A stretch of 64,000 nucleotides of DNA from Maritimibacter sp. (lineage in GTDB: Bacteria; Pseudomonadota; Alphaproteobacteria; Rhodobacterales; Rhodobacteraceae). A model generated the notes under the pieces. It worked only from the letters and a program-made list of their open reading frames with translations. It had not been told where the DNA came from and did no database searches. Shown piece after piece: positions 26,807-36,647 of this stretch (the stretch's first letter is position 1; the number at the start of each line of letters is the position of its first letter). Where the stretch lies: NCBI GenBank assembly GCA_964230745.1, contig CAXRHZ010000041.1:87280-151279 (forward strand), given 5' to 3'. A program made the position numbers and the translations under genes.

Positions 26807-26976
26807 CGGGCGACCCTGTCCCAGCGGCGCTGGAATGAAAAGAGCGACGCGGGGGGCGTCGGCGGCGCAGCGCCCCGCACGGGCGATCCCGGCGATGGAA
26901 ATACAACCTGAGGTAATTCTGATATCTTGATTGCCTGTTTGAGTTGTATAGGGTGGTGCCCGAAAAGGGGCTACGC

Positions 26977-28149
26977 TTGAACGAGTACGATTTCCGAAAT
27001 GCCCGTGCCGCCGATGGCGTCAGGGCCCAGCTCGGGCTCTTGCTGAACAGGCTACGGCAGGCCTGCGGCTTCGAAGCCGTGTTCATCGCGCGGATCGCGG
27101 GCACGGAGCGGCGGATCGAAGCACTGGCGGCTGCGCCGGGGCAGGGCGCGGATCTCGCGGTCGGGCATGTCTGCGCGCTGCGCGACTGCCCGGTGGTCGC
27201 GGCGGCGGTCGCGCGCCAGCCCGCCCCCCTGCGACAGGTCATCCCGGCCCCGTTTCGCCCGGGACGCGCGCCCGACGGGGCCGCCGGCGTCGCCGTGCTC
27301 CTCTCCGACGGGGCGGTGTTCGGGGTGCTGGGCGGGATCGCGTCGGACGTGGGCGCCGACGTGGACGCGCGCCTTCGCGAGACGGCAACTCACCTCGCGG
27401 TGGCGCTCGACCTGCTGCAGGAAGACGCGGCGGTGGCACAGCGTCAGCGAGGGCTCTTGCGCGCGTTGATACGGGAGGAGCGGTTCCGGCCCGTGTTCCA
27501 GCCGGTGTGCGACCTCGTCACCGGAGACGTGATCTATCGCGAGGGGCTCACCCGGCTCGACGAGAGTGCAGGGACGAGCGTCCCGGAGGTGATCGCGGCG
27601 GCTCACGCGGTCGGGCTGGGGCCCGAAGTCGAACTGGGTTTCGCGCGCGCGATCCTTGCTGCCGACCGGGACTGGCCGGATGCGGCGGGGCTCGCGATCA
27701 ACCTGTCGGAAAGCACGCTCCACGCGCCGGACTTTGAGGCGTTTCTCGCACAGGAGGCCGAGCCGGGGCTGACCGTGGAACTGACCGAGCACGAACCGGT
27801 GCGCGACTACCCTGCGCTGGTGGAGCGGGTGGCGATGATGCGGGCGGCGGGCCTGAGCCTCGCCATCGATGATGCGGGCGCGGGATACACGTCGTTGCGA
27901 CATATCCTCGACCTAAAGCCGGACGTCTTGAAGATGGACGCGGGGCTGTCGGCGCGCGTGGACACGGATCCGGAAGCACTGGCGCTCTTTCGCGCGCTAC
28001 AGGGGTATTGCGACGAGACAGGGACGATACTCGTCATCGAGGGGATCGAGCGGGCCGAACAGCTCGCCGCTTTGCGGGCGGTCGGCGTGCGATATGTCCA
28101 AGGATTTCACGTGGGCGCGCCGGAGGAAAGGGCGCAGTCGTCCGGGTGA
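26977..28149 (+). CDS. GAF-like + EAL domain c-di-GMP phosphodiesterase
   Basis: FQPV, EGLTR (EAL variant), AINLS, VELTEHE, IDDAGAGYTSL, LKMD, IEGIE, YVQGF; start uncertain (TTG). Confidence 0.85.
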   Translation: MNEYDFRNARAADGVRAQLGLLLNRLRQACGFEAVFIARIAGTERRIEALAAAPGQGADLAVGHVCALRDCPVVAAAVARQPAPLRQVIPAPFRPGRAPDGAAGVAVLLSDGAVFGVLGGIASDVGADVDARLRETATHLAVALDLLQEDAAVAQRQRGLLRALIREERFRPVFQPVCDLVTGDVIYREGLTRLDESAGTSVPEVIAAAHAVGLGPEVELGFARAILAADRDWPDAAGLAINLSESTLHAPDFEAFLAQEAEPGLTVELTEHEPVRDYPALVERVAMMRAAGLSLAIDDAGAGYTSLRHILDLKPDVLKMDAGLSARVDTDPEALALFRALQGYCDETGTILVIEGIERAEQLAALRAVGVRYVQGFHVGAPEERAQSSG

Positions 28150-28179: not shown

Positions 28180-28857
28180 TTACATTCCGTGGCGGCCGAA
28201 CACCGTGCGGATGGTCATCGCGATGATACGAAGCTCCATCGCGAAGCCGGCGTTGCGGATGTAGTTCAGGTCGCGTGCGGTCTTGGCCCGCGTGGCATCG
28301 ACGCCCACGGCGTAGCCGAGCGTCACCTGCGCCAACCCGCTGATCCCGGGGCGCACGAGGTGGCGGTCGCGGTAGCGCGGGATTTCGCGCGAGAATTCGT
28401 GGGCATGTGCGAAGGTGTCGGGCCGGGGGCCGATGAGGCTCATCTCCCCGCGCAGGACGTTGAGCGCTTGGGGCAATTCGTCGAGCCGGGTGCGACGCAG
28501 AAGGCCGCCGAGCTTCGTGATCCTGTGCGTTTCGAGCGGGTCCTTGGCCGACCGTGTCGCGCTGGACGAATGCCGCATCGTCCTGAATTTCAAGACGTCG
28601 AAAGGCTCGCAGCCGCGACCCATCCGCTCCTGACGGAAGAACAGGGGGCCCTTGTTGAGGAAAGGATTGAGCAGCAGAAGCGCCAGGCCGACGAAGGTCG
28701 CGATGACGAGCAGGATAACCGATGCCACGATGTCGAACGCACGCTTGGCGGTCCAGAAGCCGGCGGACCCCCCGAGCTTATGGTTGGTATTGCTGACACG
28801 TCCGCCGACGCTTTCAACGTCGGAGAAGCGATATCCGATATTCGGATCGGCAGACAT
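28180..28857 (-). CDS. priming sugar transferase (WcaJ/CpsE-type catalytic domain)
   Basis: KRAFDI, FRQERMG, KFRTM, LDELPQ..NV..GEMSLIGPRP, VRPGISGLAQV. Confidence 0.92.
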   Translation of the reverse strand: MSADPNIGYRFSDVESVGGRVSNTNHKLGGSAGFWTAKRAFDIVASVILLVIATFVGLALLLLNPFLNKGPLFFRQERMGRGCEPFDVLKFRTMRHSSSATRSAKDPLETHRITKLGGLLRRTRLDELPQALNVLRGEMSLIGPRPDTFAHAHEFSREIPRYRDRHLVRPGISGLAQVTLGYAVGVDATRAKTARDLNYIRNAGFAMELRIIAMTIRTVFGRHGM

Positions 28858-29134
28858 CCTCGCCCCCAGAGTTCGATCGCCGGACCGCATCCGTTCTGAA
28901 TGTCCGGCGACCCACTTCGCCAACATACTGCAATGCGGCATCGTGTATAGGTCTTATTAACGAATAGGGGCGGACAGGCACGCTTGTGCCGACTAACCGG
29001 GGCCGTTGCCGAATAATTGGGCGCGTCGTCGCGGGCGCCTAATACCAAAGAATGCCTCGGCACAGGGATGTAACACCCGCATGAAGAATCACCGGAACCG
29101 GGGCGCGCCTGGCTGCGGCCCCGGCCGGGCCGTG

Positions 29135-29872
29135 TCAGGCGGCCCTGCTATCGTCGCGGCGGGTGCGGGCCAGTTTGTTGGTGAGGGAGACGGAAAGGAG
29201 ATGCGCGTAGATCGCGGGGAGTGTGCCGGACTCGCGCAGGCGCAGGAAATCGGCGTCGGACAGGCTGCGCAGCTTTTCCTCGTCGATCACGGCGAAGCCA
29301 TGCAGGCTCGCCGAAACCTCACCGCTGGCGTCGCGCGCCTCGATTGTGATCTGCGAGAACAGGTCGAGCTCCTTGAGAAGCCCCAGCGTTGCCTCGGTTC
29401 GTTTCGCGGAGGCCGCGTATTCGGTGACGAGCCGCACGACCCGGTCCATGAACTCGGTCTTCGTGCCGTCCTCGTCGAAGAGAGGCGTGCCCTCGTCGCC
29501 CTCGGCGAACCCGTCGTAGCCGGCATCCACGCAGACAATCGGGTCGGACCCCTCCTGCTCGCCGAGAATGAAGGGATAGCGGCGCAGGTACGCGGGCATG
29601 TAGCCGGGGCTCCAGGCGCCCGCGGTGTCGACGAAGACGTTTTCCCCGGTCCGGAGCCCGCACAGGAAGACCGGCGTGAAGCCCGTGTTGGTGGGCACGA
29701 ACACGATCGGCAGTTCGTGTGCCGCCGCCGTGAATTCGTCGAAGACCGCGGGAATGAGCTGCGCGTCGCGCGCAAAACCGAAGGGCTCGTCCAGCGCGGC
29801 GATCCGGTAGGATTGGTGGTTCACCGAGGAGAGCGCCTCGACGGACTTGTAAAACATCGGCAATTTGGTCAT
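29135..29872 (-). CDS. SapC family protein
   Basis: EF..A..ELPIVF, ENVFV...G.W...YMPAYLRRYPFIL, F..DG..T. Confidence 0.88.
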   Translation of the reverse strand: MTKLPMFYKSVEALSSVNHQSYRIAALDEPFGFARDAQLIPAVFDEFTAAAHELPIVFVPTNTGFTPVFLCGLRTGENVFVDTAGAWSPGYMPAYLRRYPFILGEQEGSDPIVCVDAGYDGFAEGDEGTPLFDEDGTKTEFMDRVVRLVTEYAASAKRTEATLGLLKELDLFSQITIEARDASGEVSASLHGFAVIDEEKLRSLSDADFLRLRESGTLPAIYAHLLSVSLTNKLARTRRDDSRAA

Positions 29873-30304: not shown

Positions 30305-31032
30305 ATGCTGGATATCAAGCGAACCGTCGTTCACACGCTGAACGAAGAGACGAACAACCCCTTCGTGACGGGCGCCTTCCGTCCGAATTTCACCGAGTAC
30401 ACGGCGGACACCGATACTCTCAAGGTGACGGGTGAAATCCCCAAGGATCTCAATGGCGTTTACGTGCGCAACACCCACAATCCGGTCCACGACTCCATCG
30501 GCCACTACCATCCCTTCGACGGTGACGCGATGCTCCACGCGCTTCACTTCGAGGACGGCAAGGCGACCTACAGCAACCGGTTCGTCGAAACCACCGGCTT
30601 CCTCGCCGAGCAGGCGGCGGGCCGGTGGCCCGGCCTCTTGAACCCCGACGAAGGCGCGCGACGCGGCTGGGGCGCGATCGGGGCGATGAAGGACAACGCC
30701 GGGACGGACGTCCACTGCCACGCCGGGATGTTGATCGCGGTCATGTCTCAGAGGTCCGAGCCCTGGCGGCTGGACCCGGTCACGATGGAGAACTTCGGCC
30801 CTGACGCGGAATGGGCGTTCAAGGTGGGACCGGCGGGCGTCACCGCGCATTACAAGGTGGATACACACACCGGGGAGATGATGTTCTTCAACTTCTCCGA
30901 GACCTACCCCTACATGAGCTACGGGGTGGTCGACCGGGACAACAAGCTCCAGCACTACGTGCCGATCGAGCTGGACGGGCCGCGCTGGCCGCACGACCTG
31001 GGCGTGACCCAAAACTACTCGATCCTCCACGC
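30305..31032 (+). pseudogene. carotenoid/stilbene cleavage dioxygenase (RPE65 family), 3'-truncated
   Basis: GEIPKDLNGVYVRN, HPFDGDAMLH, TAHYKVD, WPHDLGVTQNYSILH; after about 243 aa the frame runs on without family motifs to a stop at 31231; C-terminal His ligands absent. Confidence 0.8.
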
Positions 31033-31175
31033 TGACCAATTCACCGCCGCCGACGCTCGTCATGCACCAAGGCCGCTGCGGCGCATTCCCGAAATCCGCC
31101 GACGGCCACATCAAACGACCTGCCGCCACGGCAGCGCAACGTGGTTCTGTGAAGGAACGATGCCGCCGAATTCGT

Positions 31176-31258
31176 GCGAAACTGCAAGCCAAACTGCGTA
31201 CCGCGCGCGTTCAACCAGACATCCCGGCTGAAACGTCTACCAAGTCATTGAAAGGTAT
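31176..31258 (-). mobile_element. att-like remnant downstream of tRNA-Cys
   Basis: Direct repeats GCGAAACTGC (31176-85) and GCCAAACTGC (31188-97); IHF-like TTTCAATGACTTG on the minus strand (31241-53), next to the tRNA 3' end. Confidence 0.45.
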
Positions 31259-31332
31259 TGGAGGCGAGTACCGGAATCGAACCGGTGTACACGGATTTGC
31301 AATCCGCTGCGTCACCACTCCGCCAACTCGCC
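31259..31332 (-). tRNA. tRNA-Cys(GCA)
   Basis: GGCGAGTTGGCGGAGTGGTGACGCAGCGGATTGCAAATCCGTGTACACCGGTTCGATTCCGGTACTCGCCTCCA: 74 nt, GCA anticodon, T-loop GGTTCGATTCC, encoded CCA. Confidence 0.98.
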
Positions 31333-31463
31333 GAAGGGTGCGGGGGGAATAGCCCACGCGGGCGGGCTGTGCAAGGGGGTTCGGCGGGTGGTTGGCGTTG
31401 CGGCCCCGGGGTTTCTGTGGCAAGACCCGACGAGAGCCACGGAGCCAGACAGGACGCCTTCCC

Positions 31464-32117
31464 ATGAGCGATTTCGAGACACGCCGCCGGATGATGGTCG
31501 ACACGCAGGTTCGCCCCTCCGACGTCACCAAGTATCCCATCATCGACGCCATGCTCACCGTGCCGCGCGAGGACTTCGTGCCGGACGATCAGCGCGAGGC
31601 GGCCTACAGCGAAACGCAGATCGTGCTGGCGCCGGGGCGGGTCCTGCTCGAGGCGCGGTGTTTCGCCAAGCTGCTCGACGTGCTTTCGATCCAGCCGGAC
31701 GAGCTGGTCCTGGACCTGGGTGCGGGCTTCGGCTACGGCGCGGCGGTCATGGCCGAGCTGGGCGACTTCGTCGTCGCGCTGGAAGAGGACGAGGCGCTGG
31801 CGGGCGAGGCCGAGGCCCGGCTCGCGAACGCGGGCGTGGACAACGTGGCCGTGATCAACGAGGCACTGGCCGGCGGAGCGGCCAAGCATGGCCCCTACGA
31901 CGTGATCCTGATCGAGGGCGCGGTGGAGACGGTTCCCGACGTGATCACCGACCAACTGCGTGAAAATGGTCGCATCGCCACTATTTTTTCCGAGGACAAC
32001 CTTGGAATTGCGAAAATCGGGCACAAGATTGACGGAGCCGTGAACTGGCGCTTCGCCTTCAACGCGTCCGCCCCGGTTCTGCCGGGATTCACGGCCTCGA
32101 AAGAATTCGCGCTCTGA
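31464..32117 (+). CDS. pcm: protein-L-isoaspartate O-methyltransferase
   Basis: [43 protein letters not shown]. Confidence 0.9.
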
Positions 32118-32146
32118 GGCGCGACGCCACAGGGATCGGGGACATC

Positions 32147-33604
32147 ATGCCACATTTCATGTCGGGACTTGCCAGGCGCGTGACCGCTGCCTGCCTGTCC
32201 GCCACACTTGTCCTGGCGCCCGTTGCGGCCAGTGCCGAGTCGCTCGCCGATGCGATGGTCGCGGCTTACAAGAATTCGGGCCTGCTGGACCAACAGCGCG
32301 CGCTTCTGCGTGCCGAGGACGAGAACGTGGCGGTGGCCGTGTCTGCCCTGCGCCCCGTGTTGTCCTACGCGGCGACAGGCTCATGGAACTTCAACAATCC
32401 TTCGGTCGGCGGCACGGTGCCCGCGGCTTCGGAATCCGTGAGCGGGTCGCTGGCCCTGACCGCGTCGCTCCTGATCTACGACTTCGGGGCAACCGACAAG
32501 CGGATCGAGATCGCGCGCGAGAACGTGCTGATGACGCGCGAGGCGCTCGTCGGGGTTGAGCAGAACGTGTTGCTCAGCGCCGTGAACGCTTATCTCAACG
32601 TGCTGTCGGCGAGCGACTCGGTCGCGCTGCGGGCCAACTCGGTGCGGCTGATCACGCAGGAACTGCGTGCGGCGCGCGACCGGTTCGAGGTTGGTGAGAT
32701 CACGCAGACGGACGTGTCGCTGGCCGAGGCACGGCTGGCGGCGGCCCGTGCCGCCGAAGCCTCGGCACGGGGCAATCTCCTCGTCGCGCGGGAGGCCTAC
32801 AAGGCGGCCGTGGGCCGTGCGCCGGGGCAACTCGCCCCGCCGCCGAACCCGCCCGCTGTCCCCTCGACCGTCGAGGCGGCGAAGTCGCAGGCGCGGGCGC
32901 GCCATCCCGACGTGAAAGCCGCGCAGCGCTCGGTGAGTGTGGCCGAGATGTCGATCGAGCTGGCCAAGCGCAACACCATGCCGACGCTGAACGCCCAGGT
33001 TCAGGCCACGACCGGATTGCGCTCCACGACCACCTATTCCCCGCCGCCGATCGGGACCACGACATCGAGCGGCCCGAATGCCGGTCTGTCGGGGAGCCTG
33101 ACGCTTTCCGGTCCGATCTATTCCGGCGGACGCCTGTCGGCGCTTTATCGCCAGTCGCTCGCGCAGGCGGAAGCGGCGCGAGCGGGACTTCACGTGACGC
33201 TGCGCAACGTGGAACAGGCTGTCGGCAATGCCTGGGCCCAGCTCTCCATCGCGAGCGCGAGCCTCCAGGCGTCGGATCGCCAGATCCGGGCCAGCACGGT
33301 GGCACTGCGCGGCGCGCGGGAGGAGGCGAGGCTGGGCGCACGCACCACGCTCGACGTGCTCAATGCAGAGCAGGAGCTGCTCGACGCGCGCTCCACCGCC
33401 ATCCAGGCCCGGTATGACCAGTACCTCGCGATCTACAACCTGCTGGCCGCGATGGGGCTGCTGACCGCCGACCATCTGCGGCTCGGGATCGCCACCTACG
33501 ACCCGTCGGCCTATTTCAACACCGTGAAGGACGCACCGCTGCGCACGGTGAGCCCGCAGGGCGAGAAGCTGGACCATATCCTTGAGGCGCTGGGAAAACG
33601 CTGA
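32147..33604 (+). CDS. tolC: TolC family outer-membrane efflux protein
   Basis: Signal peptide, SLADAM..AY..S..L, RFEVGEITQTDV..AEAR, GARTTLDVLNAEQEL. Confidence 0.93.
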   Translation: MPHFMSGLARRVTAACLSATLVLAPVAASAESLADAMVAAYKNSGLLDQQRALLRAEDENVAVAVSALRPVLSYAATGSWNFNNPSVGGTVPAASESVSGSLALTASLLIYDFGATDKRIEIARENVLMTREALVGVEQNVLLSAVNAYLNVLSASDSVALRANSVRLITQELRAARDRFEVGEITQTDVSLAEARLAAARAAEASARGNLLVAREAYKAAVGRAPGQLAPPPNPPAVPSTVEAAKSQARARHPDVKAAQRSVSVAEMSIELAKRNTMPTLNAQVQATTGLRSTTTYSPPPIGTTTSSGPNAGLSGSLTLSGPIYSGGRLSALYRQSLAQAEAARAGLHVTLRNVEQAVGNAWAQLSIASASLQASDRQIRASTVALRGAREEARLGARTTLDVLNAEQELLDARSTAIQARYDQYLAIYNLLAAMGLLTADHLRLGIATYDPSAYFNTVKDAPLRTVSPQGEKLDHILEALGKR

Positions 33605-33608
33605 TTTT

Positions 33609-33624
33609 TTAAGGGTTTCCTAAC
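33609..33624 (+). promoter_or_regulatory. CtrA-like box upstream of the PopZ-like gene
   Basis: TTAA-GGGTTTC-CTAAC, one mismatch to TTAA-N7-TTAAC; an additional GGTTAAT half-site at about 33634-40. Confidence 0.5.
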
Positions 33625-33717
33625 TGAAGCATGGGTTAATGCCCATGTGCGGATTGCCCAAAGGGCCGGCGCTGGCTATTCTGAGGACCGGGGCTAAATC
33701 GAGGCGGTAACGAATCC

Positions 33718-34662
33718 ATGTCGGAACCAGTAACGAACCGGGAAATCGAAGACGTTCTGTCGGCGGTGCGGCGACTCGTGTCCGAAACCGGCGCGCCCCG
33801 GCGCGAGGAGCGGGCGAGCGAGATGGCGGGCAAGCTGGTCCTGACGCCGGCCTTCCGTGTGGACAACAAGCCGGAACCGGTCGTGGAGGCCGTTCCGGAG
33901 GCGCCGATGCATGCGGACGCGCCTGACGTGCAGGAGGCGTCGGTCGAAGCCCTAGTGCAGGATACGGTGGACGCTGCGCCTGAAGCGAACATCGCGGAAA
34001 GCGATGAGAGCGGGGCGCCGGAGGACGGCCAGCCGGATGCGATCGACGCGGCGCTGGCGGCACTCAAGGCAGACTCAGGCGCGGAGGTTGGCGAGACATC
34101 CGCGGCTGGCCCCGCCCCGGAAGACTCCGTGGCAGAGGTGACCGAGACGCTCGAGGAGCGGATCGCGGAGCTCGAGGCCGTGGTCACGGCGCCCGAAACG
34201 GAGGAATGGGAGCCGGACGGATCGGAAGAGGCCGATGCGCCGCGGACCGTCCTGTTCCGCCACAGCACGCCTTTCGCTTCGGTCTCCGACCCTGAACCCA
34301 CGGATGCGCCGGAGGCGGACGCCGATCCGGTGGACCTGTCGGAGGCCCCCTTTGCCGAGGCGGCCGACTGGGAGGACGTGGAGGAAGAGGCGATGTCCTT
34401 CGGAGCCGGTCCCGAAACGCTCGAGGCGGAAGAAGAGACGCTGTATTCTGCCGCGGATTACGACGATGCCGATACGACCCCCCTGTCCGGCGAAGGCGAC
34501 GGGGACGACATGGTCATCGACGAGGACATGCTCCGTGAAATCGTCGGGCGGCTCGTGCGGGAAGAACTCCAGGGCACGATGGGTGAGCGCATCACCCGCA
34601 ACCTGCGCCGCATGGTGCGCCGCGAGATCGCGCGCGCGATGGCGCTCAAGGATTTCGACTGA
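33718..34662 (+). CDS. acidic, largely disordered protein with PopZ-like architecture
   Basis: N-terminal EIEDVLSAVRRLVSE helix, E/D/A/P-rich middle, C-terminal helices MLREIVGRLVREELQG...RRMVRREIARAM; directly after pcm-tolC. Confidence 0.65.
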   Translation: MSEPVTNREIEDVLSAVRRLVSETGAPRREERASEMAGKLVLTPAFRVDNKPEPVVEAVPEAPMHADAPDVQEASVEALVQDTVDAAPEANIAESDESGAPEDGQPDAIDAALAALKADSGAEVGETSAAGPAPEDSVAEVTETLEERIAELEAVVTAPETEEWEPDGSEEADAPRTVLFRHSTPFASVSDPEPTDAPEADADPVDLSEAPFAEAADWEDVEEEAMSFGAGPETLEAEEETLYSAADYDDADTTPLSGEGDGDDMVIDEDMLREIVGRLVREELQGTMGERITRNLRRMVRREIARAMALKDFD

Positions 34663-34765
34663 CCTTCCGAACCTGAACGTGCGCCTTTCGGCGCGAAACG
34701 ATGCCTCGCACCCGTCCGGAGGGCAGGTGCTCAGGCGGGGCTGCGTGACGTGCGCTTCACACCGT

Positions 34766-36326: not shown

Positions 36327-36647
36327 TCAGGCGGCTTCGGCAGCCTCCGCCGCATGGCGGCGTTCGCTTTCTTCGCGCGACAGCGCGACCGAGGTGCGCA
36401 CACCCTTGGCCACGAAGTCCATCAGGCCGGTCACGACGCGTTCGTTCGGATCGATCCCGGCGCAGGACAGCACTTCGCGCCCGTCGCGCGAGCGCGCCCA
36501 ACGGGCAATCTGGTCCGGGCCGTTTCCGTATTTCTTGTCATCCGCGATGGCATCGTCCAGAGCGGCAAGGACCACGGCGGCGAAGAGTTTTCGCGCCCGG
36601 TTCCCTTGTTCGTGGTTGAAGGCAGTTCCGTCGACGTTGTCGAGCAT
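36327..36647 (-). CDS. conserved hypothetical protein (DUF6280-like)
   Basis: [63 protein letters not shown]; own terminator; divergent from efp; family name from memory. Confidence 0.75.

Follow-up and report, generated by a model that had tools for sequence, protein, structure and literature searches.

A probable divergent ortholog of PopZ encoded downstream of pcm and tolC in Rhodobacterales

Background

An open reading frame of Maritimibacter sp., here called ORF X, encodes what is probably the Rhodobacterales ortholog of PopZ in a remodelled form, with the terminal modules and the locus of PopZ kept and a presumed role as a scaffold, and we put the probability of this reading at roughly 0.75. 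PopZ is the central protein by which Alphaproteobacteria organise their cell poles, anchor their chromosomes and signal asymmetrically, and one of the foremost bacterial models of biomolecular condensates. The N-terminal amphipathic helix (H1) of Caulobacter PopZ recruits client proteins. Both the Rhodobacter model organisms and the abundant roseobacters of the sea belong to the Rhodobacterales.

The order has been described as being without a conspicuous PopZ (PMC5182065, PMC6414705), in agreement with an earlier note on this DNA, and R. sphaeroides was taken to have no PopZ by Pfeiffer et al. (2019). No binding of ParB1 of R. sphaeroides to Caulobacter PopZ was seen in a two-hybrid assay (PMC9298525). 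PopZ homologs were gathered by Lasker et al. (2022) by BLAST of the C-terminal region (PMC9512792), an approach by which the Rhodobacterales family would be missed. No description of a Rhodobacterales PopZ was found in the literature searched. Three members of the family are labelled 'cell pole-organizing protein PopZ' by the automatic annotation of JGI; some pipelines therefore already make the link, and the novelty of the finding is moderate.

Gene locus, coding signal and transcription

The window analysed in this study is the whole stretch of Maritimibacter DNA, 64,000 nt long, and all positions are counted from its first letter. The genes and elements around ORF X are as follows.

31392..32117, + strand: PCMT-family methyltransferase gene (pcm-like); PF01135, 6.4e-26; upstream in 76/80 loci
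32147..33604, + strand: TolC outer membrane channel gene; TIGR01844, 2.8e-86; directly upstream of ORF X
33654..33682, + strand: possible own promoter of ORF X, TTGCCC-N17-TATTCT, in the tolC-X spacer; kept in six Maritimibacter-clade sequences
33718..34662, + strand: ORF X, probable divergent PopZ ortholog (PopZ-like protein of Rhodobacterales); coding signature, homologs and RNA

ORF X starts with ATG and encodes a protein of 314 aa with a pI of 4.05. Its GC content per codon position (0.77/0.47/0.81) is like that of the adjoining genes, which indicates that the frame is coding, and the start codon is backed by 30 aligned relatives, in which M1 is invariant and the N-terminus MSEPV is kept. 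A metatranscriptome contig of 3242 nt covers positions 31444-34685 with 0 mismatches, that is pcm, tolC and ORF X, and stops 23 nt past the ORF X stop codon. Three transcriptome contigs lie within ORF X, and two transcriptome runs have perfect contigs inside it. ORF X is real and transcribed.

The TTGCCC-N17-TATTCT element is predicted from its sequence and may be a promoter of ORF X's own; a scan for consensus promoters and terminators gave no match, this element included. A CtrA-like 16-mer, TTAAGGGTTTCCTAAC, is present at 33609-33624. Boxes of this kind, with at most one mismatch, were found in 4 of 77 loci, three of which belong to the nearest relatives and carry the identical 16-mer, and the box was therefore rejected as a family-wide regulatory feature.

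The earlier note had placed the gene directly after pcm and tolC, and the PF01135 and TIGR01844 matches, both on the + strand, bear this out. The order PCMT, TolC, X, all on the + strand, was found in 76 of 80 family loci, and the gap between TolC and X has a median of 85 nt; of the four exceptions, two are cut by contig ends (L014 and L056) and two are not (L016 and L037). Downstream of ORF X lie cobQ (- strand), a DUF6280 gene (- strand) and efp (+ strand). A family member of Celeribacter indicus has the locus PCMT-OEP-X-cobQ, with cobQ again on the - strand. The popZ locus of Caulobacter segnis (L002) reads PCMT-OEP(TolC)-DUF2497-valS on one strand, so that the position of popZ after pcm-tolC in Caulobacter, as given in the earlier note, holds; the downstream gene differs, being valS in Caulobacter and cobQ on the opposite strand in the family. 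The locus of a diverged metagenomic PopZ (P0315, L085) likewise contains PCMT-OEP-DUF2497. The slot after pcm-tolC that is shared by 76 of the 80 loci and by Caulobacter popZ argues that ORF X is the positional ortholog of popZ.

Protein organization and conservation within the family

Conservation was read from the columns of an alignment of 30 relatives. It is gathered in three modules (residues 1-48, 145-170 and 268-307), and between them the linkers are free in length and sequence; such a restriction to modules would not be expected by chance. The parts of the protein are listed below.

33736..33789, + strand, residues 7-24: H1-like N-terminal helix containing EIEDVLSAVRRLVSE; AlphaFold2 pLDDT 75-89; matched by PopZ N-module profiles
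33832..33861, + strand, residues 39-48: KLVLTPAFRV motif, family-specific; V41, L42, T43 and R47 invariant in 30 relatives
33862..34128, + strand, residues 49-137: acidic disordered linker 1; pLDDT mostly below 50; about 25% D+E and about 24% A
34129..34227, + strand: central module, made up of the helix LEERIAELEAVV (residues 138-157) and EWEPDGSE (residues 163-170); AlphaFold2 helix pLDDT about 75
34228..34515, + strand, residues 171-266: acidic disordered linker 2; pLDDT below 50; about 30% D+E
34516..34659, + strand, residues 267-314: C-terminal H3H4-like module; two amphipathic helices, AlphaFold2 pLDDT about 90

AlphaFold2, run on the alignment of 30, predicted helices at residues 7-24, 138-157, 269-285 and 287-313 with pLDDT 75-93, and 142 residues of the ORF X protein had a pLDDT below 50. 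The layout reported in the earlier note, an N-terminal helix, a spacer of about 240 aa and C-terminal helices, is present, with EIEDVLSAVRRLVSE at residues 9-23, a spacer of 242 aa (residues 25-266) and RRMVRREIARAM at residues 297-308. The note had also called the spacer E/D/A/P-rich; it is acidic (28.1% D+E; net charge per residue, -0.24) and alanine-rich (18.6% A), and less rich in proline (9.5% P).

Among the 30 relatives, the conserved strings are MSEPVxNAEIEDVLSSIRRLVSE at residues 1-24, KLVLTPAFRV at residues 39-48, LExRIAELEAAV ... EWEPDGSE at residues 138-170, and VIDEDxLRExVxRLVREELQGxxGERITRNVRRMVRREIxRALAL over the last 48 residues or so. Conservation within the family is highest in the C-terminal two-helix module, whose second helix is strongly basic (RITRNLRRMVRREIARAM). 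In the central module, L145, I149, A150, L152, E153 and E170 do not vary, and E165-S169 hardly do; no such module was evident in the members from Cypionkella and Paracoccus.

Distribution of the family and its absence from annotation

The homolog search returned 2264 proteins, none of which had a precomputed Pfam domain and for which the NCBI label is 'hypothetical protein'. When each species was represented by one genome, at least 560 genomes were found to encode a relative. The best 80 of these all belong to Rhodobacterales and include Maritimibacter, Roseovarius, Aliiroseovarius, Celeribacter, Thalassovita, Tateyamaria, Sulfitobacter, Phaeobacter, Ruegeria, Yoonia, Loktanella, Cypionkella, Paracoccus, Limimaricola and others. 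The nearest relative among the matches listed is from a Maritimibacter MAG (62% identity). When the search was seeded with the Cypionkella member, Cypionkella, Pseudorhodobacter and Tabrizicola were among the 120 matches listed, and none of these 120 came from Rhodobacter or Cereibacter.

The full-length ORF X protein had no Pfam or NCBIfam match at E <=1, and a PDB sequence search with it returned no relative. Its isolated C-terminal 50 aa matched PF10691 (DUF2497), the PopZ family, with E=0.24 and 12.3 bits over columns 37-73 of the 75 model columns, and the relatives reached 15.8-19.8 bits, all below the gathering cutoff of 27 bits, as compared with 86-94 bits for canonical PopZ. A sub-threshold DUF2497 match was nevertheless found in 21 of the 30 relatives (best E=3e-4), always with the C-terminus aligned to model columns ~31-73, and DUF2497 was the only recurrent Pfam family, any other being matched by at most 2 of the 30 members. 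The 75-column Pfam model fails because the counterpart of H2, which makes up the first half of DUF2497, is missing.

Profile evidence for homology to PopZ

A sequence of Caulobacter PopZ was used as query to assemble the PopZ set, and the entries returned are annotated with PF10691 and named PopZ. One returned PopZ then served as the seed of an exhaustive search, which gave 150 diverse representatives, of which 144 were used in the HMM. Pairwise BLASTP against Caulobacter PopZ gave E=0.019 and E=0.33 only, and a first whole-alignment hhalign comparison, with a Caulobacter-only PopZ profile, aligned the N helix alone at 48.8% probability. Because of the narrowness of the Caulobacter-only profile and of interference from the linker, the modules were compared one by one on the 144 diverse PopZ proteins.

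The full-length PopZ HMM was tested against 1320 controls, consisting of shuffled, locally shuffled and reversed sequences. It gave 15 bits or more for 51 of 120 family members and for none of the controls, the control maximum being 10.9 bits. In this test the score of the ORF X protein itself is lowered by a large bias correction; the naive full-length PopZ HMM gave it E=5.4, yet it ranked first within the 64-kb window, where the PopZ HMM scan found no second PopZ-like sequence.

With the PopZ N-module HMM, the median score of the family N-termini was 20.7 bits and the ORF X score 14.1, while no control exceeded 7.4. Reciprocally, the family N HMM scored PopZ at a median of 22.5 bits, and each of the 139 PopZ N-termini exceeded the highest control, which reached 10.1. 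The hhalign comparison of the N modules gave a probability of 95.6% (P=1.1e-8), anchored on residue 1 of both families.

For the C-terminal modules, the PopZ C-module HMM gave a median of 8.8 bits on the family, and 109 of 111 C-termini exceeded the 99th percentile of controls. The family C HMM reached up to 27.3 bits on PopZ C-termini, 41 of 144 of which lay above the control maximum of 10.5, and the genuine PopZ proteins P0315 and P0341 scored 27.1 and 25.6 bits. The hhalign probability was 82.5% (P=9.8e-6) over 36 gapless columns, which pair MLREIVGRLVREELQGTMGERITRNLRRMVRREIAR with TLEDVVRELLRPLLKEWLDQNLPRIVETKVEEEVQR (Caulobacter residues 136-171, H3H4) and end near the C-terminus. All four cross-module negative controls were flat. 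The alignment register of amphipathic helices can be ambiguous, and for a single pair, P0001 against the PopZ C HMM, HMMER picked a different local register; the pairing with 136-171 results from every profile-level and intermediate-sequence alignment.

By these profile comparisons, both terminal modules show homology to those of PopZ. The earlier note had proposed a divergent PopZ counterpart, to be checked by a profile search of the termini, and that search favours it, since both termini match PopZ profiles, reciprocally and above shuffled and reversed controls, and the locus is shared.

Comparison with canonical PopZ and other polar hubs

Caulobacter crescentus PopZ (PF10691/DUF2497; 177 aa) and ORF X are alike in the helix at the extreme N-terminus (MEEILASIRRIISED in PopZ, EIEDVLSAVRRLVSE in ORF X), in an acidic disordered linker, in the gapless C-terminal pair and in the order pcm-tolC-popZ on the same strand. 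The central helix with EWEPDGSE and the KLVLTPAFRV motif are found in the family only. The central module had no counterpart in 144 PopZ proteins, with the positive control working. A likeness (LxLT) between KLVLTPAFRV and the DVLELT motif of PopZ was considered and rejected, as no significant HMM match was obtained.

In Caulobacter PopZ, H3H4 (residues 135-177) form a trimeric coiled coil in which W151/L152 are crucial for trimer stability, contacts between trimers are made by H2, and filaments form through the action of the last six residues (PMC12999525). Several of these elements differ in the family. The PopZ H2 HMM (Caulobacter 102-128, AASAFGSL-type) gave a median of -2.2 on the family, with none above the 99th percentile, while its median on PopZ, the positive control, was 42 bits. 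At the Trp151 site, WL is found in 111 of 113 PopZ representatives, as opposed to a variable residue in the family (T/S/A/P/Q and others; Thr287 in ORF X), whereas the Leu152 site stays hydrophobic (V/L/M/I; Met288 in ORF X). Pro146 and Pro158 of Caulobacter are not conserved in the family. The last helix is basic in the family, with a net charge of +4 over the last 28 residues as against +1, and canonical PopZ is acidic or neutral there.

The linker has a median length of 226 aa in the family and 88 aa in PopZ (2.5 times longer), and its proline content is 9.3% in the family, as compared with 20.7% in PopZ representatives. The net charge per residue is -0.23 in the family and -0.20 in PopZ representatives, with 28% and 24% D+E, respectively. 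In PopZ homologs, longer linkers are offset by lower charge (PMC9512792), a drop that the family linkers do not show.

The closest canonical relatives of the family C-module are diverged PopZ proteins from other Alphaproteobacteria (P0315, P0341 and P0329, for example) with C-termini of the type ...LRPMLKGWLDENLPxIVERMVRAEIERIAR. The family C HMM gives them 20-27 bits, and they have the string RMVR.EI.R in common with the family; P0315 also has the PCMT-OEP-PopZ locus. Unlike the family, they belong fully to PF10691 (86-94 bits), possess H2 and the WL core, and have short linkers, with a total length of 183-221 aa.

On sequence grounds, ORF X is a divergent, non-canonical PopZ, in which H2 is absent, Trp151 is replaced, the linker is longer and a central module has been added. 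A polar-scaffold, condensate and client-recruiting function is what we infer for it.

DivIVA of Firmicutes and Actinobacteria and HubP of Vibrio are self-assembling scaffolds, coiled-coil or acidic in nature, by which ParA/ParB and signalling proteins are held at the poles. They would be functional analogues only of ORF X, if its presumed role as a polar scaffold holds; no relationship in sequence was seen, and at E <=1 neither ORF X nor its relatives matched DivIVA or any other hub family of Pfam.

Proposed mechanism and alternative explanations

If ORF X is a remodelled PopZ, its C-terminal helices would oligomerise, and the long polyanionic linker would project the N-terminal helices outward and set the fluidity of the assembly. 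The N-terminal helix would then dock lineage-specific clients, for example ParB/ParA or components of the CtrA phosphorelay, at the cell pole. Since H2 and the Trp are lost and the linker is 2.5-fold longer with undiminished charge, the added central helix (LExRIAELEAAV) may have replaced the lost valency by providing self-association of the kind that canonical PopZ owes to H2; a contribution might also come from the basic last helix through its action on the acidic linker. We advance tentatively, as something possible on which we would not wager, that assembly relies on the central coiled-coil helix and on the attraction between basic tail and polyanionic linker in place of the H2/Trp core, giving a polar or non-polar condensate with other material properties and other clients.

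The main rival is that ORF X descends from PopZ and no longer forms a hub. The protein would then be a soluble acidic adaptor or chaperone-like tether without self-assembly, in which the N-terminal helix, KLVLTPAFRV and EWEPDGSE would act as linear binding motifs. The absence of H2 and the replacement of Trp151 speak for it, since in Caulobacter these elements aid trimer stability and inter-trimer contacts, as does the linker of the family, whose greater length at undiminished charge, contrary to the trend among PopZ homologs, is predicted to cause stronger repulsion. PopZ has been found to be dispensable for fitness in Zymomonas (bioRxiv 10.64898/2026.07.24.740507), which shows that PopZ functions drift. 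However, the C-terminal pair is the most conserved part of the protein, is predicted with a pLDDT of ~90 and keeps the Leu152 site hydrophobic, and a conserved amphipathic pair in an otherwise disordered protein resembles an oligomerisation interface. We consider this explanation unlikely.

That ORF X is not homologous to PopZ at all, being an unrelated acidic disordered protein with convergent or chance helices, would fit the sub-threshold scores of all curated models, the poor BLASTP and first hhalign values, and a C-terminal match that is short, helical and open to one alternative register. It is improbable, because two independent modules matching at the correct ends, reciprocally and above controls, with cross-module controls flat, the same slot after pcm-tolC, and DUF2497 as the sole recurrent Pfam match would all have to coincide by chance.

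A role as an envelope-tied, co-transcribed accessory factor of TolC efflux or of the isoaspartate-repair methyltransferase, suggested by the single metatranscriptome contig that spans pcm, tolC and X and by the three co-directional genes with short gaps in 76 of 80 genomes, is very improbable, since bona fide Caulobacter popZ has the same gene order and, to our knowledge, no TolC function, so that the linkage carries no functional message, while the N-terminus is an acidic amphipathic H1-like helix and not a signal peptide or membrane segment, and a promoter-like element is kept in the tolC-X spacer.

Implications

A syntenic, divergent ortholog of PopZ makes pole organisation and ParB anchoring in Rhodobacterales directly testable. 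If the altered assembly logic proposed for the remodelled PopZ is true, it could explain why ParB1 of R. sphaeroides does not bind Caulobacter PopZ, and also the diverged ZitP zinc-finger domain in Rhodobacterales. The family represents a natural experiment in PopZ design, without H2 and the Trp core, with a linker 2.5 times longer and with an added helix, and such a PopZ variant would be useful for understanding and engineering the material properties of condensates.

Genomic context and transcription of the PopZ-like gene

One error-free metatranscriptome contig covers positions 31444-34685 of the window, and thus pcm (a PCMT-family methyltransferase gene), tolC and the PopZ-like gene. Because this single contig spans all three genes and ends 23 nt past the stop codon of the last, co-transcription of pcm, tolC and the PopZ-like gene is suggested; DNA carry-over in the metatranscriptome library could also have given such a contig. 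The surrounding features were as follows.

26944-28149, +, EAL-domain protein (c-di-GMP phosphodiesterase type)
28180-28941, -, bacterial sugar transferase
29135-29872, -, SapC-family protein
30305-31228, +, RPE65-type carotenoid oxygenase ORF (model match)
31259-31332, -, tRNA-Cys(GCA) gene
36327-36647, -, DUF6280 gene (PF19796, 9.3e-46)

Downstream, the DUF6280 gene is flanked by cobQ and efp, and the DUF6280-efp pair was kept in at least 64 of the 80 Rhodobacterales loci. The upstream neighbours encoding the EAL-domain, sugar transferase and SapC-family proteins show no conserved linkage with the PopZ-like locus. The oxygenase ORF looks truncated or frameshifted, since its match is limited to model positions 1-221 of 469, and together with the directly adjoining tRNA-Cys(GCA) gene it may represent a rearrangement remnant at the tRNA.

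Distribution of the CtrA-like box and the central module

The spacer between tolC and the PopZ-like gene carries a CtrA-like 16-mer, TTAAGGGTTTCCTAAC (33609-33624), which was identical in the three closest relatives and missing from M. harenae, Maritimibacter S23 and most of the family (found in 4 of 77 loci). The family members of Cypionkella (L054:4501-5430) and Paracoccus (L084:4501-5358) retained the module at each terminus as well as the LILTPALRV motif, and were without a recognisable LExRIAELEAAV...EWEPDGSE central module. The central module is therefore confined to part of the Rhodobacterales.
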